DNA of 63,418 nucleotides, filler included, from Reclinomonas americana ATCC 50394 (Eukaryota): assembly GCA_048213135.1 (NCBI GenBank). It is 10 parts of 6 records of this genome, joined end to end, with 100 filler letters (N's around TTAATTAATTAA, not from the genome) between each part and the next. Parts side by side here need not be neighbours in the genome. Positions count along the whole stretch, not along the records: positions 1 to 12,742 come from PS015739.1; 9 more parts are not named here. One strand, written 5' to 3'. Under the pieces are notes generated by a model. That model worked only from the letters and a program-made list of their open reading frames with translations. It had not been told where the DNA came from and did no database searches. Every line of letters begins with the position of its first letter. Positions within the stretch are counted from its first letter, which is position 1. The position numbers and the translations under genes were made by a program. This document shows positions 2,345-59,961 of this stretch, piece by piece.

Positions 2345-3182
2345 CGGGATAGGATAGATTACCATTTTTGCTTTTCGTTATTGATGTTGTTGTTTTTGTT
2401 TTATGTTTTGCTGTGTAACATGAGGAAATGAAATCGCGGGAGGAACAATGCTTCTTCGTACCACCACCATCACTTTGCATTCAACCTACTCTCGCAAAGC
2501 AACAACGACGACGAAGCACGACAATGATATATATGGACACAAGGACATTCTAACAGCAAGAGACACGCTACAGGAACCAAAACCACCGACATACTGAGGA
2601 CTAGGGGGGAAACGGAATAAAACGATGAAGAAAAAAAGAAGACTACGACTCTGCCGACACACCCGACTGCACGCACCGTATTCCACAACAAACAAGCAAG
2701 CACCCCTCTCCACCCATCACCACCGACAGCCAGACTGAAGCATGGCTGCGGTGAATGAGAGTTGCTGCTGCAGCCACCACCACCACCATCACAATCACCA
2801 ATGGCGAATCAGCCCATCTCCACTATAGAGAACTTGGATGGGCATGGCCGACGATGAATGGGCGACAATGGTGGGGAGCAGCAGTCAATGAGAGAGAATA
2901 GCAGCAGTTTGTGCAGAGTGCGCGCACCAACATGGCGAGTGCACGACAGAATCCAAGAGCGAAACCAGGTAAGAAAGAGAGGAAAACAAGGAAACAGGAA
3001 GACACAGGGCGAGGGGAGAAAGGAAAAGAGAGAGAATGAGATGACAGAGCGACGGGTGAGATGCGTGAAAGCGTGCGGGAAACAGTCTCACGACTGCCTT
3101 GATGCTCCACACGCCTCACACACCACGCCATTCGCCACCACCACTCCTCTCCTTGCCCGCGTCCCCACTTGCGTGTGCCTGC

Positions 3183-6159
3183 TTACTTCTTGCCCTTCTC
3201 CTCGAACTCGGCCTCGGTCGGGCCGCTCGAAGACGACGACGACTGCGCAAACACAAAGTGAGTTTTCCCACACACACGCGCACACCACTGGACAGAAACG
3301 CAACAGCATTGCGGTGAATGTGCTCGCCAATCTTCATCGAAGCCGTTGTGACGGCCTCCTTGGCCTGACGGATACCCTCGATATCGTCGCGGCCGACAGC
3401 CTCGCGCAGGTTGGCAATCTCCTTGCGGAGAGCGTCAGAAATCTCCTGCGGCACCTTGCTCTTGTACTCCGACAGCGTCTTCTCCGACGAGTGCAGCAGA
3501 CCCTCGGCGTCGTTCTTCAACTCGACGAGTTCCTACGCAGGCCAAAAAATGAGCAACAACAGAAGCCCCAGACGCAGCCACATTCGCATCATTATTCTTC
3601 TACAAACCCTGCGAGTGCGATCCTCGGCAGCGTGCGCCTCAGCGTCGCGAATCATGCGCTCAATCTCCGCCTCCGACAGGCCACCCTGCGGGCGCACCGA
3701 CGTCTGCTGCTCCTTGCCAGTGGCCTTGTCCTTGGCCGACACGTGCACAATGCCATTGGCATCGATCTCGAAAGTCACCTCCACCTGAGGCACTCCGCGA
3801 GGCGCCGGCGGGATGCCGACCAGATCAAAGTTGGCCAGCAGCTTGTTGTCGGCAGCCATCTCACGCTCGCCCTGCAGCACCTTGATCGACACCTGAGTCT
3901 GGTTGTCGGCGGCAGTGCTGAATGTCTGGCTGCGCTTGGTCGGCACGGTCGTGTTGCGCGGAATCAGGCGGGTGAACACACCGCCGAGCGTCTCAATGCC
4001 CAGCGACAGCGGCGTCACATCCAGCAGCAGCACGTCCTTCACCTCGCCCATAAACACACCACCCTGAATGGCGGCACCCATGGCCACGACCTCGTCCGGG
4101 TTCACACCCTACGTGTGCGCGCCACGTACGTGAGAAAACAAGACAAAAAACTGCACCCGCCGCGGGGATCACACAAAACCTTGAACGGCTCCTTGCCAAA
4201 GAACTTGGTGACGACCTCCACGACGCGGGGCATGCGAGTCATGCCACCGACCAGAATCACCTCGTTGATGTTCGACAGACCGACACCGGCGTCCTTGATG
4301 GCAGCGCGGCACGGATCGACAGTCTTCTGAATCAGGCTCTCCACCAGCGACTCCAGCTTCGAGCGCGACATCTTCATGTTCAAGTGCTTCGGTCCCTGAG
4401 CGTCGGCAGTGATAAACGGCAGGTTGATCTCCGTCTGCAGCGTGGAGCTCAGCTCGATCTTGGCGCGCTCGGCCGCGTCCTTCATGCGCTGCATGGCCAT
4501 CGAATCGTTCGACAGATCAATGCCAGTCTGCGAGGCTGGCGAGTGAGTGATCTGCGGCCAGCCACGACTGTGAACGGGCGAGGAAACCAACCTCCTTCTT
4601 GAACTCGTCGCACAGGTAGCGCAGGATGGTGTTGTCAAAGTCTTCGCCGCCGAGGAACGTGTCGCCGTTGGTGCTCTTCACCTCAAACACACCGTCGTTC
4701 AACTCGAGCACCGAGATATCGAAAGTGCCGCCACCGAGGTCGTACACGGCCACGGTGCGCGCCTCGCGCTTGTCCAGACCGTAGGCCAGCGCCTGTGCGA
4801 GGGAGGGAGAGCAGGTGAGTCTCGCGGCACGCCAATGAGAAGAGAGAGGATGAATACAAACGCAACGGCAGCAGTCGGCTCGTTAATCACACGCATGACA
4901 TCCAGACCGGCAATACGTCCAGCGTCCTTGGTGGCCTGGCGCTGGGGGTCGTTGAAGTACGCGGGCACGGTGATGACGGCCTTGGAGACCGGGCGGCCGA
5001 GGTACGCCTCAGCAGTCTCCTTCATCTTGGTCAGAATGAAGGAACCGATCTGCGCCGGCGAGTACTTCTTGCCGTCGGTGGTGGCGACCCAGGCATCGTT
5101 GCTGTTGTCGGCCTTGACAATCTTGAATGGCACCATCTTGGACTCCTTCTGTGTCTGCGGGTCGTTGAAGGCGCGGCCAATCAGACTGCATGGCGACAAC
5201 ACAAAACACGTGAGTTTTTGAGTGCTGAGGGAAGAAGAGTGTGTGCGATTGCTCACGCACCGCTTGGTGGCGTAGAACGTGTTGGCACCATTGGTGACCG
5301 CCTGGCGCTTCGCCGGCTGGCCCACCAGACGCTGTCCGTCGTCCTGTTCGAGTGGCAACAAGGCGGAGTGAGCCGGCGGCTGACGCGAGGGAAGAGAGGC
5401 ACACGCAACAGTAAAGGCGACAATGGACGGCGTGGTGCGTGCGCCTTCCGAGTTCTCCAGCACCTTGGGCTGACCACCCTCCATCAGCGCCACACAGCTG
5501 TTCGTCGTCTGCACGCGAGATAAGAAGCTCACAATTAGACTCGCAGAAGGGGAAAAAGATTCGCATCAGCATCCTCAATGCAAAAACGCACTCTGTGCGT
5601 GGGAGAAGGAAGAGTGAGCTTCTGTCGTCAGAAGACAGATACACACACACACACACACACACTCACCCCAAATCGATTCCAATGACGACATCGGCCTTAC
5701 TGTAGACACACGCACACACAGCGGAAGTAAGAGGACATGTCGCACAAAACTCCGCGTGCTCAACTGCGCGGAGACACCACTGACGAAGACGGAGCTCACC
5801 TGGCAAACGACTGTAGATGGCGATGATGATGATGGGCACAACACAGACAAGGAGAGGAAAAGCAGTCAGTCAAGATGCACACGTCAGCATCACACATACA
5901 CAAAACGACAGATTGTCAGGCGGAGAGCGCGAAAGACAACAACAACGACAGAGAGAGCGAGCGCATCAGACTGGCAAGGCGAGGAGAGGGGAGGCAGAGG
6001 GGCGACATGCACATGCGCATGCGCAAACACACACTAATGTAAACACACAGAGAGAGAGAGAGAGAGAGAATGCAACGCAACTCGCGCCGCAGCCTGGCGC
6101 AACAACGGCAGTGAGGACGACGACGACGCGCCAACAAAGCGACGCGCTGCAAGCAACAT
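3183..6159 (-). CDS. HSPA9: Mitochondrial Hsp70 (DnaK-type, mortalin/Ssc1 orthologue)
   Basis: Spliced product begins [48 protein letters not shown] (Arg/Ser-rich presequence). It contains [66 protein letters not shown] and [14 protein letters not shown]. Includes an 11-nt exon (5800-5810) and a 1-nt exon (5592). Confidence 0.95.
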
Positions 6160-6238
6160 CTTCTCTCGTGTTCCGATCTAAAGAAACCGAATAGTGGGAC
6201 GAAGGGACGCGCGCAGGACCACTCTTACGTTTCGTCTC
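6160..6238. promoter_or_regulatory. Putative bidirectional promoter between the Hsp70 and eEFSec start codons
   Basis: Divergent ATGs at 6159 (-) and 6239 (+) are separated by only 79 nt. Confidence 0.55.
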
Positions 6239-8917
6239 ATGAGCGAAGGGAGCGCTTCTGCTGCTGCTCCTGCTGCAGACGATGCATTGCCACCGTTGAA
6301 TATCAATGTGGGAATTCTGGGGCATGTGGATAGCGGAAAGACCACACTTGGTGAGTGAGAAAAGAACAAAAAAGTCTTTCTCACTCTCTCTGACTTTCCT
6401 GTTTTGCATCAGCTCGTTCTCTGTCAACAGTGGCCTCGACCGCGTCGTTTGATAAGAGCCCGCAGAGTCAGGAACGCGGCATCACACTCGACTTGGGATT
6501 CTCGTCGTTCTCTGTTGACTTGCCGGAGCATCTCGGGCCAGAGGTCTTGTTACGCGCATTCTCCGCGTGTGTGTTCTCCTCAGTGTCCAATCAGTCTTTT
6601 GTGTCTCGCATTTCAATGCTGTGAATGCATGATCGTGTCTCCTGCTCCTCATCATTCTTCTTCTCATCCTTCTTCTTCTTCTTCTCCATCATCATCTTCT
6701 TCTTCATCTTCTTCTCCTCCTCCTCCTTCCCACTGTGCAGTTCTCCTCCTGTTCGTCTTCTTCTTCTCCTGCTTCTGCTGCTTCTCCTCCTCGTCCTTCA
6801 TGTGCTTCTCCTTCTCCTTGTCGTTCTCTTCCTCCTCCTCCTCCTTCTCCTCTTGTTCTTGTTCTTGCTCTTGTTGTTGTTGTTGTTGTTGTTCTTCTTC
6901 TTCTTCTCCTCCTCTTCTTTTTGTTCATCTTCTTCCTCTTCTTCTTCCTCTTCTTCTTCTCCTTCTTCTTTTTCTTCTTCCTCTTCTTCTTCTTCACCTT
7001 CGTCTTTCTTCTTCTCCTTCTTCTTCTCCTCCTCCTCTTCCTCCTACTCCTCCTCCTCCTCCTCCTCTTCCTCCTCCTCCTCCTTTTCCACCACCACCTC
7101 CTCCTCCTCCTCCCCCTTCGCCCTCATCCCTCATCCCTTCCCGTCTTCTCGCTCCAGGTGGCCTCCCGCTACTCCCGCCTCCAATTCACGCTCGTCGACT
7201 GCCCCGGCCACGCCTCACTCATCCGCGCCGTCATTGGTGGCGCGCAAATTATCGACTCGATGATCCTCGTGATCGACATTCAAAAGGGCATCCAGACGCA
7301 GACGGCCGAGTGCATTGTCATTGGAGAGATTCTCGCCGGCGACCTGGTGGTGGCCCTCAACAAGGTCGACCTGATTCCGGCCGAGGCGCGCGAGGAGGCC
7401 ATTCGGAAAATGTCGCTCCGCCTCTCCAAGACCTTTGCGACGTCGACGCGGTTCGGGGCCGAGGTGCCGATTGTGCCAGTGAGTGCACTGACGGGTGGCA
7501 TTGAGGCGCTGGTGGCCACGCTGCGACAGCGTGTGCGCGTACCGCAACGGGACTCGAAGCCGTCGCGCTTCGTGGCCGCCATTGACCACTGTTTCAGTGT
7601 GCGTGGCGTGGGTACGGTGTTGACGGGCACGGTGCTCAGCGGCAGTGTGTCTGTTGGCGACAACATTGCGGTGCCGTCGGCGGGCGACTCGGAACTGCAC
7701 CGCGTCAAGTCGCTGCAGGTGTTTCATCGACCGGTGCAGCGGGCGGCGCAGGGCGATCGGGTCGGCATGTGTGTGCACGGAGTGGACGCCAGCAGCATGG
7801 AGCGCGGACTGGTCGGCGCCCCCGGCAAACTGGTGCACGTGAATGCGTGTGTGTGCTCGGTGCATCCGGTCAACTTTTTCAAGCTGGACGCCCCCTCGCG
7901 CTCCAAGTTTCACATTACCGTGTCGCACACCACCGTCATGGCCACTGTCAACTTCTTTTCACCCCCACTCGCCGCCGTCGATGCCGATCGAGGTGGCAGC
8001 AGTTCGGGTGCACCATCGGCACCGGTGGAGGCTGCCGCGCTGTCGCGAGTGGCACTGGAGGGTGTGCAGGACGAGCGTGCGCGCTTCACTCTCGACATGG
8101 ACTTCCTGGACGACGCAGAGATGCGGCGAGCGGGCAGTGGCACCGCGGCCGGCGGCGGCAGCAGCACCACCACGACAACAACAGCAACCTCGTCGAGTGC
8201 CGCAGGTCCGTCGGCGGCGGCCGGTGATGGTGGCGACGACGGCGATGGCGACGGCGATGATGACGCTCCACGCAAGTCGCTGATTGACGAGCCACGAGCG
8301 CCGTACCAGTTCGCCCTGTTGCGATTCGACCAGCCCGTGTTGGTGCCACACGATGCGCTCCTCATTGCATCGCGCCTCGACACCGACATTCGTTGCGTCG
8401 CGCCATATGTCCTCATTCTCTCCGTCTCGTGTGTGCTGATGATGAGGCACACAACACAGACTCGCCCGTCTGTCGCCTGGCCTTCCACGGACACATTGTG
8501 TCGCCACCGCTCACCGACGACATGCTGGCGCAGCTGCGGCTGTACAAGCCGAAGGCCAAGACGGGAATCATTGAGCGTGTGCAGGATGCGTACACGGTGA
8601 TTGCGCGCCGTATGTTCAAAAAGGACACCGATATGAGTGTGTTTCTCGGGTTGCGCGTCACCACCTCCACGGGCGAGGTCGGTGTGATTGACTCGCCATT
8701 CGGCAAGTCGGGCAAGTTCAAGGTTCGCTTCCCGTCGGGCGGCATCACCGACGCCTGGAAGGGCCGCGAACTGTACCTTCGCTTCAAGAAGTACATGCAC
8801 AGTTTTGGCAGCGCTGCTTCCGGCAGTGGAGGCGCCTCGTCGTCTGGCGGCAGTGGCTCCTCCTCCTCGTCGGCTGCCGGAGCCGGCAAGGGCGCACACC
8901 GAAAAATCCACCAGTAG
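6239..8917 (+). CDS. EEFSEC: Selenocysteine-specific elongation factor eEFSec (SelB), 4 exons
   Basis: NINVGILGHVDSGKTTL, STASFDKSPQSQERGITLDLGFSSF, QFTLVDCPGHASLIRAVIGGAQIID, AIDHCFSVRGVGTVLTGT, SRLDTDIHSPVCRLAFHG and FGKSGKFKV match the eEFSec family. Confidence 0.93.
6650..7115 (+). repeat. Compound (TCT)n/(CTC)n/(TGT)n microsatellite in eEFSec intron 2
   Basis: Directly visible pyrimidine-rich trinucleotide runs; source of the spurious poly-S/L/F ORFs in the track. Confidence 0.9.
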
Positions 8918-8999: not shown

Positions 9000-14703
<5,704 letters not shown>

Positions 14704-14724: not shown

Positions 14725-16475
14725 TTACACTACTTGATCGAGTTGCGCAGCATCAAACAACTGCGGGACAGCACGTCGCCACATGAGCAGCGGGTGCGAG
14801 GCCGGAACTTCGGCTTGTGGACCCATCAAGCCTGTTCTACGCAGCATCTCACTGTGTAGCGTCATTGCTGCAGTGCCGCTCAAGGCCGCGGATTGGCGGT
14901 CGCGCAGGAAGTCAAAGTGGTCGGCGGAGACGGTGTTGTCGCCGTGCTGCACGTACCAGTAGAGCGTGGGCGCGTCGAGCATGATGATGCGGTGGGATTG
15001 GAGGAGTTGGTGCATGGCGACTGTGTCCTCGCCGCGGTTGAGGTTGCCGTAGGGCGGCATGGCTGACTTGCGGCACACGAGTGTGTTGTCCTGGTGCCAC
15101 ATGACGGAGAAGCGGAGGGTCGGCGGCCACACGTTGGCGTGCCAGATGATCTCGCGCGCCAACGTCGATGCGGCCACGGACTCGTCGGCGAAGCGCACAA
15201 TGGCCTGCATTTGCACGGCCAGGCGATCTGGATCGTAGATATCGTCGTCGTCCCACACGGCCACGTACTCGCCACGTGCCATCTCCACGGCAAAGTTGCG
15301 CTGCGTGCCCAGTGTCATCTGTTCGCGCTCCTCCTCCGACGAGGTGCGGATGCCAAACAGGCGGATGCGTGAGTCGCCCAGGCGCTGCAGCACGCTGTCG
15401 AGCATGCGTTCCGTCGCCGGGTTCTTCGTCACAATCACCAGCTCGCGATTGGCATACGTCTGCAGCTGGAACAGGTACACCGCGCGCAGGGCGTGCCACA
15501 CGCGTCGATCGGTGATCATCAGGCACGACACGAGCGGCAGGTCGGGCGATTCAGGCGAAAAGTACGGCGCCGGGAACGTGCGACTGTCGCCAAACATGAT
15601 ACCGCGCGCAATGACCAGCACTTCTGTTGGATTCGCGGGCGACGGATGCTTGTCCGTGATCAGATAGCCAACATCGGTGAGCGCTGAGAGGCGAGCGCGT
15701 GTGTGTGAGCGAGTGAGTCAAGCAACAACGAAACACACCGAACGAACCACGACCGCTGCCCTCAATCAACTGCACAGTGACGAAATCAGTGAAGATGATG
15801 ACGCGCGTGAGAGGGGCGACTCAAGAGGAGGAGGAGGAGGCACGCACCCAGTCTCGCATGTTCTCTGTGATGGGTGGGTGCTGCAGCTCGTTGGCGGGTG
15901 TCTCCTTGGCGACCAGTTGCCACGAGCCGCGTCCAATGCCTCCAATGCTCTGTCCGTCTTTCTCAGGGTCGGGAGGAGGTCCACACACGAGCAGAGTGAA
16001 GGTGTCGGTGAGAGGGTAGTAGATCCACCAGCGGAGAGAGCANNNNNNNNNNNNNNNNNNNNNNNNNNNNNNNNNNNNNNNNNNNNTTAATTAATTAANN
16101 NNNNNNNNNNNNNNNNNNNNNNNNNNNNNNNNNNNNNNNNNNCGTGGAGCGCAGGAAGAGAGTTGGGTGTCGTGTGCAGAAGCATGCGCGCGTCTGTGCA
16201 CAGAGTGAGTGTGTGCGAGAGTGAGAGAGTGTGTATGTGCACGTAATCAGCGCACCTCTTCGCCTGCAATGGACACCGCATGGTCGACAGCCACTGTGCG
16301 CGCGCGCACACACACGTCATTCAATGCACACACATAGACACACTCACACACAACAACTGACGCAACATTGCGCATTGCTGTGTCTCACAAGGCACACACA
16401 GGCGACAAGGAGGAGGAGGAGGAGGAGAGGAAACCGCAGATAACACACGGCCTCTCTTCTTCTCTCCGCAATCAT
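14725..16475 (-). CDS. GT2-family (GT-A fold) glycosyltransferase, paralog 1, with signal/anchor and Cys-containing N-domain; 5 exons
   Basis: PLVSCLMIT, QTYANRELVIV, TLGTQRNFAVEMARGEYVAVWDDDDIYDPDRLAVQM and GED motifs. Hydrophobic exon 1 (MIAERRREAVCYLRFPLLLLLLLVACVCLV). Exon 3 reads continuously across the spacer at 16043-16142. Confidence 0.85.
16043..16142. other. Artificial scaffold spacer N44-TTAATTAATTAA-N44 (others at 12743, 29131, 31442, 37386, 39239, 53733, 55677, 59482)
   Basis: The same 100-nt linker, with stops in all six frames, occurs nine times. Here the flanks join with no missing base (LRST|CSL), matching paralog 2. Confidence 0.95.
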
Positions 16476-53593: not shown

Positions 53594-56257
53594 GGGAGGA
53601 AGAAACGAAACGAACGAACGAACGAAGGGAAGGGGAGAGGAGAGACAAGTACAACAGCGTAGGTAAGGAGTAGGATAGTTAGTAAGAGACTAGAGAGAGA
53701 GAGTGTGTGTGTGAGAGAGAGAGAGAGAGACANNNNNNNNNNNNNNNNNNNNNNNNNNNNNNNNNNNNNNNNNNNNTTAATTAATTAANNNNNNNNNNNN
53801 NNNNNNNNNNNNNNNNNNNNNNNNNNNNNNNNGGAGAAACGAAAACACGAACGACAAGGAAGGGGGAGAGTGAGAAGCAAGTCAACAGCTGTAAGGGATA
53901 GGGATATTGTAAGAGACTGAGAGAGAGAGTGTGTGTGTGAGAGAGAGAGAGAGAGACAGAATACGGGACGAGAAGCAAGGAAACGACAAGACAATTGTGA
54001 GTAGTTGAGAAAGATATCGAAGGAGAATGTCACAGTGAGAGAAGAGTGGGCACTGTGACAACTGCGGAGAGGATGGAAAACGAAAGAAAGCGAGTGGACA
54101 GGAGAAGAGAAAGCACGCAGGACACAACACACGAACAGAGGAGTGAATCAAGCAAGAGATGCACTCCGAAACGCACTTTTGTCGCAGCAATAAAACGCCA
54201 CGCACGCGTAACCGTCGCATGCAACACTGCGCATTTCATCAGCTTCAGCGGACAGTCCCCGAACAGCACAGCAAGGACGGCGCACAACTGAACCTCGCGA
54301 AACCGCTGCACCCAGTGCGCAAAGAGCTCCCGTTGCGAGCGCTTGTCCTGACGAGCCAAGATCGGTTGCACAAGACGACGCTCACACTCGCGCAGCTGTC
54401 GGTACAGCTTCAGACCCTGGGAAACAGAAGCAGCAAGCATTTAGACTTCTCCTCCATTCACATCACCGCAGACAAAGGCAGACCTTGATAAAGCGCCCCG
54501 CCAGACGTGCACGAATGCGGCAGCGAACGAGTTCCTGGAAGTACTCCTCTTCGAAGCGCCATCGCTGAAAGCACTTGCGCACAATGCGCCGTGTCCAGTG
54601 ACGCACCGCGCGCAGCCAGTTGTCCGTCATCAGGCGGCGAGAGTGTGAGCGACGAGTGACCCTGCAGCGGCACTCTCAGCAGCGTGCGATACGGAACAGA
54701 GTGGACATTTACACACACTCACACACCTTCTCCAGTCGCGAAACACCCGCTGCTGCAACACATAGGCCGCAAAACCACGCAGTCGCTCCTCACCGCTGTC
54801 CGCTTTCCCAGAACCCTCGCCAACAGATCCTCGTGACGTGCGTCGCAAAATTGAAGGCGACGGTGGTGGTGACGTGCGCTCCACCAACTGGCGAGCTTGC
54901 ACCGACGGTGGCGGCAGCAGATCAAACGGCGACGACGACGACGACAGTGACGCCACAGACGACGATCGCAGTGGTGGCGAGAACACTGCCGAGTCTCTGC
55001 TGTTGACAGACTGCGCTGCCGCTGAAGGGGATCGTGCCTGCTGCTGCTTCTTCTTCTTCTCCTCCACTTCCACCACTTGCTGCGCATCCGTGGTTGCCAC
55101 AAAGTCGAGACGACGTGCGGCGGCATCGCGCTGCGACCGGCGTGCATCCGGCGGCGACGGCTGCAACACCATCGAATCCTCGGCCGNNNNNNNNNNNNNN
55201 NNNNNNNNNNNNNNNNNNNNNNNNNNNNNNNNNNNNNNNNNNNNNNNNNNNNNNNNNNNNNNNNNNNNNNNNNNNNNNNNNNNNNNNNNNNNNNNNNNNN
55301 NNNNNNNNNNNNNNNNNNNNNNNNNNNNNNNNNNNNNNNNNNNNNNNNNNNNNNNNNNNNNNNCCCCCTTCCCCTTATCCGCCTTTCCCCTTATCCTCCT
55401 CCTTCTCCCCCCTTACAGCCTCCCTCGCCCCACCCTTCCCGGACTCCCCACCCCCCTCCTCCACCACACCAATTCACGCCTTTGGCCGCATTCCACCCCG
55501 CGACCTCAGTCTGTGGATGCTGGAGGAGGACTTTGCGGCGTTTGACGAGCGACTGTCGCGCATGGTGGTTCATCGGGAGGGCATTGTGACCCCCAACTCG
55601 GCCGCCAAGGCCGCCCGCGAGGCAGCGGCGGCGGCGGCGGCGGCGGCTCGGCACGCAACGGAGGTGTCGGATGTGTNNNNNNNNNNNNNNNNNNNNNNNN
55701 NNNNNNNNNNNNNNNNNNNNTTAATTAATTAANNNNNNNNNNNNNNNNNNNNNNNNNNNNNNNNNNNNNNNNNNNNTAGAGGGGTAGGGGTGAGAATGCA
55801 ACTGAACTGAAAGAGATAAAAGAAGCAAGGGATGAGAAAGAGAGAGAGAGCAGAGCGTCAGAGTGAATAACGACCAGTGACGAGAGGTTTAGAGACAGCG
55901 AGAGGTACGGGAGGCCGGGATTGAGGAAGGGGGATGAGGAGCCAGGGAAGAATGAAGAGTGAACAGTGCGTCAGGGTACTTGACTACTGCACGGACACGA
56001 TGGGACTGGAAGCAAGGAGGGTGATGAGAGGAAAGTGAGAGAAGCTGGAGGAGAAGACTGACGGTTGGAAAGTGAGAGTGAGAAGGCGATGATCTTGGAA
56101 GAAGGAAAAGGGAACAGAATGTGTTGTTTTCTCTACCTGGTGAAGTTCGTCTCGCAGCTTGTACTTCGCATGGAAACGGTTTCTCTGTCTGTCTCTGCCG
56201 CTCTCGCCTAAGTCTGCTTGTCTGTGTGTTTTATGTCGTGTGCCGCTCTTGTTCCTT

Positions 56258-59230: not shown

Positions 59231-59961
59231 CAGCTGCAAATGGACCTGACACGTCATAACATATGTCAAGGGATGTCCCACTAACATCACTCTGACATGA
59301 CCCCCTTGACATGCTCTTCTTGCAGTTAGTAACTGTACCGCGAGTACTCCGGAGTGCTCAGAACATGTCGTTCCAGTGCAGTGACACGTCATCTCCTCGC
59401 GGCTGACATGTGTTGACATCCGATTCGCGAGCCAAACACCCCACGCGCAGCACAGCAGCCGCTTGCTTCTGCGCACATCCANNNNNNNNNNNNNNNNNNN
59501 NNNNNNNNNNNNNNNNNNNNNNNNNTTAATTAATTAANNNNNNNNNNNNNNNNNNNNNNNNNNNNNNNNNNNNNNNNNNNNTGTTTCTTGACCTTAGACC
59601 ACGCAAAGATGGTCGACATCGACATGACAGAGAGAGAGAGAGCGCGCGCTCTTTTGTGCAATGAGGAATGGTCGCGTGACACTCAGACCGACACAGGAGG
59701 TCATGGGCACCCACTACCACCACTCTGTGACGCTTATGCACTCACTTGCGTGACATGGTTGATGTGCACCTTCTCGTCACATACACTGAAAAGCCCTTCT
59801 CCTGCTCCTTGGGTGCTCGCGGCTTCGGAGACCACCATTCCATGGAGTTGACTGGCATGTGCTAACAGGTGCCGGACGATGTCAACCAGCAGCGAGCATG
59901 CAGGTCAAGATCGTTAACATCGCTAACATATGTTATGACGTGTCACCGCCATTTCCAGTTG
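59231..59961. mobile_element. Non-autonomous DNA transposon (MITE-like) with degenerate TIRs and TA target-site duplication
   Basis: TA|CAGCTGCAAATGGACCTGACACGTCATAACATATGTCA ... TAACATATGTTATGACGTGTCACCGCCATTTCCAGTTG|TA: a 32/38 inverted match with TA on both sides and many internal TGACA/TAACAT motifs. No transposase ORF seen. Confidence 0.65.

Follow-up and report, generated by a model that had tools for sequence, protein, structure and literature searches.

A candidate single-nucleotide exon in a mitochondrial-type Hsp70 gene of Reclinomonas americana

The kind of gene structure considered here, a spliceosomal exon of one nucleotide, is already known from APC11, VPS55, and CYP621A. In Arabidopsis thaliana APC11, exon A333 was proven by cDNA, genomic resequencing, and substitution and deletion constructs (Guo & Liu 2015, PMC4674806). 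There, the interval is 422 nt long, had been annotated as one intron, and carries the A 333 nt in, with a branch point 44 nt upstream; the authors argue for intron definition and sequential removal of the two introns. According to Yu et al. (2022, PMC8831610), the 1-nt microexons of plant APC11 and VPS55, constitutive or alternatively used, are conserved across land plants and supported by RNA-seq and RT-PCR, and that of VPS55 shows alternative forms. The one-nucleotide exon of Fusarium CYP621A supplies the middle base of a codon; 20 orthologs share it, and 18 SRA reads confirm it (Nelson & Syed 2026, PMC12940212). A related arrangement is the fungal spliceosomal twin intron, or stwintron (reported in PMC5587772, PMC6616335, and others), where the donor, branch, or acceptor of an outer intron is split by an inner one; the outer intron can function once the inner one has been excised, and nothing exonic is retained. 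A preliminary description of the present locus stated that records of 1-nt exons are very rare and that aligners overlook them; this agrees with the published cases, but at least three gene families (APC11, VPS55, and CYP621A) are in print.

Here, we examined a candidate exon of this kind, A5592 (plus strand T), in a nuclear gene for a mitochondrial-type Hsp70, within a 63,418-nt stretch of R. americana DNA (hereafter, the window). The locus resembles APC11 in having a lone A between AG and GT that is required for the frame, canonical flanking introns, and its own upstream branch point. Like the 1-nt exons of plant APC11 and VPS55, it lies next to a strong donor hexamer where annotation and standard aligners miss such an exon, and like that of CYP621A, the single base falls within a Gly codon of a conserved motif. 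Unlike the APC11 case, the Hsp70 case is known from DNA sequence, its introns are short and nearly equal in length (74 and 83 nt), its host is a protist, and the base belongs to a codon for an invariant residue in the catalytic loop of a chaperone that is essential. Unlike the middle base supplied in CYP621A, A5592 is the third, synonymous base of its codon. As with stwintrons, two consecutive splicing reactions would clear one stretch; unlike in stwintrons, the signals of each Hsp70 intron are intact, and removing either makes no new site.

The gene occupies positions 3183–6159 on the minus strand, and its exon-intron model and translation give a protein of 653 amino acids. The model has 12 exons (78, 11, 33, 1, 99, 83, 319, 201, 348, 501, 228, and 60 nt) separated by 11 introns (271, 100, 74, 83, 66, 75, 74, 64, 71, 75, and 62 nt), all 11 of which have GT..AG ends. 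A profile search matched Pfam HSP70 to five ORF pieces over profile positions 67–597. Among solved relatives, the two highest-scoring were both "Stress-70 protein, mitochondrial" (263.8 and 260.1 bits; best E-value 3.6e-78), followed by DnaK, whereas Hsc70 and BiP scored about 205 bits or less. Residues 1–30 are basic and Ser-rich and include no acidic residue, from which we infer an N-terminal mitochondrial presequence. The full-length domain architecture, the closest similarity to mitochondrial Hsp70 and DnaK rather than to cytosolic or ER proteins, and this predicted presequence place the protein in the mitochondrial (DnaK-type) Hsp70 family. The predicted presequence exon is linked with exon 3 by a predicted 11-nt exon 2, TCGTTTGCCAG (positions 5800–5810, minus strand); the frame of exon 3 (ORF 5663–5869) has no upstream Met, and the model therefore needs a further exon before it that ends in phase 2. 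As separate observations, the best database matches of an Hsp70 exon had 78–83% identity, and those of a class I PI3K exon in the window had at most 72%, spread over Amoebozoa, Heterolobosea, Fonticula, Capsaspora, and others.

The interval in question, positions 5666–5509 of the minus strand, is 158 nt long. The 33-nt exon 3 (5667–5699, minus strand) ends with GGA ATC GAT TTG GG, and its final GG forms the first two bases of the Gly codon in the GIDLGTT motif. The 99-nt exon 4 (5410–5508, minus strand) begins with ACG ACG AAC AGC. The reading frames of these two exons are offset by a single base, and the conserved protein is restored only when one base of the interval is retained. When the entire interval was removed as a single intron, the reading became GIDLGRRTAVWR and then a stop, at the ninth codon after Leu; the frame of GIDLGTT is thus broken, as the preliminary description had reported. 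In contrast, when A5592 was kept as the third base of a Gly codon, GGA, between introns of 74 and 83 nt, an intact mitochondrial-type Hsp70 of 653 amino acids resulted, again as described.

The upstream intron (74 nt, 5593–5666, minus strand) has the donor GTGAGT, a pyrimidine tract, and the acceptor GCACAG, a hexamer that it shares with the intron at 4866–4793. It contains an 11-unit (GT) microsatellite at 5662–5641 and a branch-like CTCAC at 5618–5614, the A of which lies 22 nt before the intron end. The downstream intron (83 nt, 5509–5591, minus strand) has the donor GTGCGT, which recurs at the donor at 5260, and the acceptor GTGCAG, which also ends five GTTGCGT-type introns in the window; its branch-like CTAAT is at 5538–5534, with the A 26 nt before the intron end. 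Every donor, branch motif, and acceptor named in the preliminary description, as well as the lone A at 5592 (minus strand), was found at its claimed position.

Each half of the interval looks like a complete, ordinary intron of the local type, judging from its length and signals. The other short introns of the gene are 62–100 nt long, and in nine of nine the branch motif lies 16–28 nt from the 3′ end, the corresponding distances in the two halves being 22 and 26 nt. Across the window, the GTTGCGT donor motif was observed 35 times against about 8 expected; 19 of these motifs are followed by a branch and an acceptor, and for 17 of the 19 the resulting intron measures 60–76 nt. Lengths of 74 and 83 nt fit the local norm, whereas the undivided interval is approximately twice that norm, which argues against an intron of 158 nt. 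The Hsp70 model also includes a 271-nt intron, however, and an intron of 158 nt is accordingly not impossible.

A 158-nt intron is what the main rival explanation proposes. If a base was lost through an assembly or sequencing indel, the true genome would have five G residues (TTG GGG/GTGAGT), the interval would be one GT-AG intron, and the internal CAG-A-GTGCGT with its branch would be coincidental. The outer GTGAGT, CTAAT, and GTGCAG would be enough for one intron, and the 271-nt intron is a precedent for its length. A missing base is plausible where the G4 homopolymer at the exon end adjoins the 11-unit (GT) repeat, and the assembly is an old-style draft, in which 11 six-frame-stop linkers (N44-TTAATTAATTAA-N44) join contigs; together with other N runs, the window includes 2030 N. 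Because GGA and GGG both encode Gly, protein comparison cannot choose between the exon and the indel. The codon usage of the gene does bear on this point: the Gly codons of the Hsp70 coding sequence are GGC (26), GGT (19), and GGA (6, including the A5592 codon), with no GGG, whereas the indel would introduce GGG, a codon absent from the 50 other Gly positions of the gene. Meanwhile, a check of the window's coding sequence with profile support, 6024 nt in all, showed no frameshift, although it contains 20 homopolymer runs of at least 4, a number that still allows an error of several percent per run. These two indirect checks speak for the assembly being right, short of deciding the matter.

The indel further requires that two independent rarities coincide: an error at the last bases of an exon, and an internal acceptor-N-donor arrangement complete with a branch and tract. 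The frequency of the second was estimated with a pattern consisting of YAG with CTNAY 16–28 nt upstream, one base, and then a donor-like GT[GT]NG[CGT]. In 20,000 dinucleotide-preserving shuffles of the 158 nt, the internal split arose 76 times; the donor filter behind this figure accepts (GT)n repeats as well, and the Hsp70 gene itself was among its sources. With the same filter, a scan of both strands of the window, which hold 238 acceptor-like and 1429 donor-like sites in total, found the acceptor-N-donor pattern at one site, A5592; its absence from every other position on the two strands also argues against the indel. Within the interval, A5592 was the only AG-N-GT leaving room for two introns. 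A second AG-N-GT, within the first donor GTGAGTGT, was rejected, as it would leave an intron of 5 nt. The acceptor-A-donor arrangement at 5592 is more than chance. A separate pattern scan gave other candidate tiny exons on the minus strand, of 2 or 9 nt near 38315–38322 and of 3 nt at 34267.

Contigs of a related organism provided a further comparison. A public run contained RNA-like contigs from this relative, 85–95% alike, with the differences mostly at every third base. The contigs skip 3531–3607, 4107–4179, 4527–4592, and 3242–3305, and GT..AG ends are present at all four of these modelled introns, indicating that the modelled boundaries are used in the RNA-like contigs of the relative. 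Over the exons covered, no letters were missing or added, which also speaks against the indel. Near A5592, a 297-nt contig of the relative covers 5409–5505 at a depth of 4.57 and probably reaches into exon 3 for some 28 nt (bin mean 1.17), an extent taken from bin depths with the joint at the (GT)n mask (5630–5674) left out; the relative's contigs give no cover of 5507–5615. When metagenome contigs were searched with a degenerate pattern for the GIDLGTT region, all five loci obtained were bacterial dnaK genes that lack introns and have their start codon shortly before the match. Considering both sides, we regard the indel as unlikely, while it remains the main rival to the exon.

A genuine one-base deletion would also account for a frame that is broken when 5666–5509 is read as one intron. 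The sequenced locus would then carry a null or strain-specific mutation, or be in decay, and functional mtHsp70 would have to come from a different allele or copy. Against this, the other exons are intact across 1962 nt, codon bias is strong (GC3 of 0.81 in the 501-nt exon), the presequence is plausible, and the stop codon is present. The internal intron signals would, again, have to be due to chance, and we consider such a deletion very unlikely.

Non-canonical processing, finally, would leave the genomic sequence as it is and restore the frame through a TG..AG or GT..CA intron, programmed ribosomal frameshifting, or RNA editing, yielding an mRNA reading TTGGGGACGACG or a shifted reading. No point supporting it was found among the data. 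GT..AG ends are present in all 11 Hsp70 introns, in three PI3K introns with the GTTGCGT donor, and at the four joints in the relative's contigs, and a frameshift within the invariant ATP-binding loop would be costly, with a stop following after nine codons. These observations make such processing extremely improbable.

Several other arrangements were considered and rejected. A stwintron does not fit, as both introns have their own intact GT donor, branch, and AG; once either has been excised, the other is still whole and a single base is left over. Recursive splicing through a zero-nucleotide exon was rejected, as one base parts the AG from the GT and is needed for the frame; a pattern scan of the window for gap-0 AG/GT sites with flanking intron-like units found none. 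Stwintron, recursive-splice, and shifted non-canonical junctions were also worked through by hand, and the frame was not restored. An introner or duplication origin was likewise set aside: the two introns are dissimilar (global score of 10), and a search of the window for copies of either found none beyond (GT)n repeats.

A single-nucleotide exon is, in our judgment, the best explanation of the assembled sequence and probably the correct one. The preliminary description had proposed such an exon, and the proposal holds as an explanation of the sequence, with both halves complete, the site unique in the window, and the ORF intact. The same description suggested that skipping of the exon might act as an NMD switch, a possibility on which the sequence data are neutral. 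Read in this manner, 5666–5509 would consist of two short U2-type GT-AG introns one base apart, and A5592 would be a constitutive exon providing the third Gly base in the invariant GIDLGTT phosphate-binding loop of the nuclear-encoded mitochondrial Hsp70.

The splice sites would most likely be paired across the intron, in other words, by intron definition, since the introns are short and tightly sized, the donor is strong, and a CTCAC-like branch lies 16–28 nt from the 3′ end. Under intron definition, a minimal exon length is not needed, and the exons modelled just upstream of A5592 would themselves be tiny (11 and 33 nt). Because the first acceptor and the second donor overlap where splicing factors make contact, the two introns would have to be spliced out in succession. 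TTGGG/A/ACGACG would result whichever goes first, whereas a junction without A5592, TTGGGACGACG, would point to exon skipping or a defective product. The preliminary description had suggested strict intron definition or sequential splicing; sequential removal under intron definition is reasonable and matches the argument of the APC11 authors (PMC4674806). On this reasoning, we infer that A5592 is present in the mRNA and that the introns are intron-defined and sequentially removed.

The two introns also share a perfect 10-nt complement. Its 5′ arm, AGAAGCTCAC (5614–5623, minus strand), contains the upstream branch CTCAC, and its 3′ arm, GTGAGCTTCT (5523–5532, minus strand), falls after the downstream branch motif and ahead of the final acceptor. 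A complement of this length was reached in 10 of 3000 mononucleotide shuffles, and of the 10 pairs of neighbouring introns in the gene, no other has one as long. The two introns flanking a constitutive 1-nt exon might be coupled, with a 10-bp helix (AGAAGCUCAC/GUGAGCUUCU) hiding the upstream branch until the downstream intron is removed. The complement is, however, absent from the minimum-energy fold, with a pair probability of about 3% for the interval alone and 0 with 60-nt flanks, and the RNA structure of the 158-nt interval was not unusual (z of −0.35; 69 of 200 shuffles folded as well). Such coupling is distinctly doubtful. If it does operate, a downstream-first order would be imposed and the steric clash between acceptor and donor would be solved; the locus would then have a built-in splicing-order device serving the smallest possible exon, in a lineage that tolerates runs of tiny exons (11, 33, and 1 nt).

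If the site proves to be an assembly error, the A5592 finding has no biological content. A literature search for a single-nucleotide spliceosomal exon in a protist or in an Hsp70 gene found none reported. Standard gene callers and spliced aligners would annotate this Hsp70 as frameshifted or truncated; annotation pipelines could usefully be tested on this case, and over-long, phase-breaking introns are worth checking for AG-N-GT. If confirmed, A5592 would extend single-nucleotide spliceosomal exons beyond plants and fungi. It would lie in a codon that ranks among the most conserved of this essential chaperone, and would mean that exons have no minimum size where intron-dense protists splice by intron definition.

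The minus-strand Hsp70 gene (6159–3183) was matched by the Pfam HSP70 profile in five ORF pieces (profile positions 67–597), and the top solved relatives of its 501-nt exon were "Stress-70 protein, mitochondrial" (E 3.6e-78) and then DnaK; cytosolic Hsc70 and BiP ranked far lower. The gene model comprises 12 exons and 11 introns, all GT..AG, and yields an uninterrupted 653 aa with a basic, Ser-rich N-terminus. Three small modelled exons, of 11 nt (5800–5810), 33 nt (5667–5699), and 1 nt, are consecutive at the 5′ end on the minus strand; with the 11-nt exon, which is preceded by a 271-nt intron, an Arg-Ser-Phe-Ala-Ser stretch becomes complete, and we take this stretch to be typical of presequence cleavage sites. 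The preliminary description had proposed a single-nucleotide exon within the interval 5666–5509, and when the sequence was re-read, all the features it described were present. Exon 3 (5699–5667) ends in GAT TTG GG and is followed by a 74-nt intron (5666–5593; GTGAGT...CTCAC...GCACAG), the candidate exon A (5592), an 83-nt intron (5591–5509; GTGCGT...CTAAT...GTGCAG), and exon 4, which starts at 5508 with ACG ACG AAC. When 5666–5509 was spliced as a single intron, translation gave GIDLGRRTAVWR and then a stop, and when A5592 was kept, translation across the exon 3/exon 4 junction stayed open. The site has the three sequence-level features of a single-nucleotide spliceosomal exon, namely a one-base phase gap, an internal AG-N-GT with canonical acceptor and donor, and a complete intron on each side. 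The proposal of a single-nucleotide exon is probably right; the accompanying suggestion that its skipping could act as an NMD switch is speculative.

The other short Hsp70 introns measure 62–100 nt, and all nine carry CTNAY, mostly as CTCAC, with its A 16–28 nt from the 3′ end; the branch-like motifs of the two halves lie at 22 nt (CTCAC, upstream) and 26 nt (CTAAT, downstream). At 158 nt, the interval is approximately twice the norm, and its halves are within range. The commonest donor was the heptamer GTTGCGT, found 35 times in the window versus about 8 expected, with 28 copies on the minus strand (for example, at 5409, 4866, 3304, 9522, 10867, 11946, 26480, and 47433). A branch motif and acceptor followed 19 of the 35, and 17 of these 19 introns were 60–76 nt long, typically with CTCAC or CTGAC and then CAG at 60–76 nt. 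GTTGCGT is an unusual donor, and so distinctive a set of intron signals might be of use in placing the organism. The inner donor, GTGCGT, is the same as the donor at 5260, and the inner acceptor, GCACAG, is the same as that of the intron 4866–4793. When both strands of the whole window were scanned for (branch + YAG)-N-(GT[GT]NG[CGT]), A5592 was the only site, among 238 acceptor-like and 1429 donor-like sites. When the interval was shuffled 20000 times with its dinucleotides preserved, 76 of the shuffled sequences contained an internal split of the same type.

A single public run shared words with the Hsp70 gene (share 0.06; the kind of run was guessed). All nine of its contigs aligned on 3000–6250 were <95% alike, with differences at mostly every third base; judged by sequence, they come from a related organism. 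Four of the modelled introns (3531–3607, 4107–4179, 4527–4592, and 3242–3305) are skipped in these contigs, each with GT..AG at its ends, and another two are skipped with ragged alignment ends, which supports the intron boundaries of the model in a relative. One 297-nt contig spans 5409–5505 and, from bin depths (a mean of 1.17 across 109 nt, with the contig at depth 4.57), probably also ~28 nt of exon 3. The alignment masked 5630–5674 as a repeat, leaving out the one joint there, where the junction base would be the relative's.

The main alternative is that the interval is one intron and that a G is missing from the end of exon 3 through an assembly indel. Exon 3 ends in GGGG, directly followed by an 11-unit (GT) repeat, and the contigs are joined by 11 N44-TTAATTAATTAA-N44 linkers, which we took as a sign of an older draft. 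However, comparison with the relative's contigs showed no insertions or deletions over the exons that they cover, and the 6024 nt of coding sequence supported by profiles contained no frameshift, although this bound on indel errors is weak because just 20 homopolymers of at least 4 bases lie in that sequence. A missing G would also require a complete internal intron boundary by coincidence, and a GGG codon, which is otherwise unused in the gene (0 of 50 other Gly codons, versus five other uses of GGA). Weighing these points, we consider A5592 a probable 1-nt exon and a missing G unlikely. That the locus is a true null allele or a copy in decay is very improbable, and non-canonical processing more so, because all 11 modelled Hsp70 introns and three resolved PI3K introns are GT..AG. 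Stwintron and recursive-splice readings were rejected: in both, the frame stays broken, and, with intact signals in both units, one base must remain.

For the 1-nt exon, pairing of splice sites across the intron (intron definition) is probable, given that the introns are short and narrow in size range and that their donor and branch signals are strong. Exon length would then be irrelevant, consistent with consecutive modelled exons of 11, 33, and 1 nt. The first intron's AG would lie within the U1-type contact region of the second donor, and that donor within the contact region of the first acceptor, so that the two introns would have to be removed one after the other; either order would give TTGGG/A/ACGACG. 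The same argument for sequential removal was made for APC11 (PMC4674806). A 10-nt perfect complement on the minus strand links AGAAGCTCAC (5623–5614), which holds the upstream branch motif, with GTGAGCTTCT (5532–5523). It was matched in 10 of 3000 mononucleotide shuffles and was the longest among 10 adjacent Hsp70 intron pairs (8 and 8 nt at the other two small exons, 0–6 nt elsewhere). In thermodynamic folding it had ~3% pair probability and was absent from the minimum-energy fold, and folding of the whole interval revealed no unusual RNA structure. In a bold and improbable reading, such a helix would mask the upstream branch motif for as long as the downstream intron is in place.

The window is a GC-rich (about 52–60%) eukaryotic draft with 2030 N. 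Its linkers, six-frame stop spacers that often sit at microsatellites, occur at 12743–12842, 16043–16142, 29131–29230, 31442–31541, 37386–37485, 39239–39338, 53733–53832, 55677–55776, and 59482–59581, among others, so contig order and adjacency are untrustworthy. Pfam placed eEFSec, a class I PI3K, three GT2 glycosyltransferase paralogs, a Kelch protein, a CRT-like transporter, glutaminase, and PCMT near Hsp70. The selenocysteine-specific elongation factor gene eEFSec (6182–8914, plus strand) is head-to-head with Hsp70. About 25 nt separate the start region of eEFSec from the ATG region of Hsp70, which suggests that the two genes share a very short promoter interval. The 5′ part of eEFSec overlaps with a long low-complexity ORF rich in Ser and Pro. 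The tandem family-2 glycosyltransferase paralogs (14728–15717, 16605–17654, and 21293–22261, minus strand) are each a long single ORF of 323–350 codons. The pattern scan also gave minus-strand tiny-exon candidates of 2 nt (AT) or 9 nt near 38315–38322, just 3′ of the glutaminase ORF, and of 3 nt (CTG) at 34267. Plus-strand ORFs antisense to Hsp70 exons (2858–4327, 4574–5218, and 4819–5520) match Pfam NAD-GH (PF10712), which we take to be the artefact family known to consist of ORFs on the reverse strand of Hsp70/DnaK genes; there is no gene there. The best similarity matches (78–83% for an Hsp70 exon, ≤72% for a PI3K exon) were spread across several protist groups.

The 1-nt exon of Arabidopsis APC11 was proven by cDNA, resequencing, and mutagenesis (PMC4674806), those of APC11 and VPS55 are proven across land plants (PMC8831610), and a mitochondrial group-I case is reported in placozoan cox1. 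Our literature search found no spliceosomal exon of 1 nt for any protist, nor for Hsp70. The main value of the Hsp70 A5592 case lies in the annotation trap that it represents and in its being possibly the first protist example.
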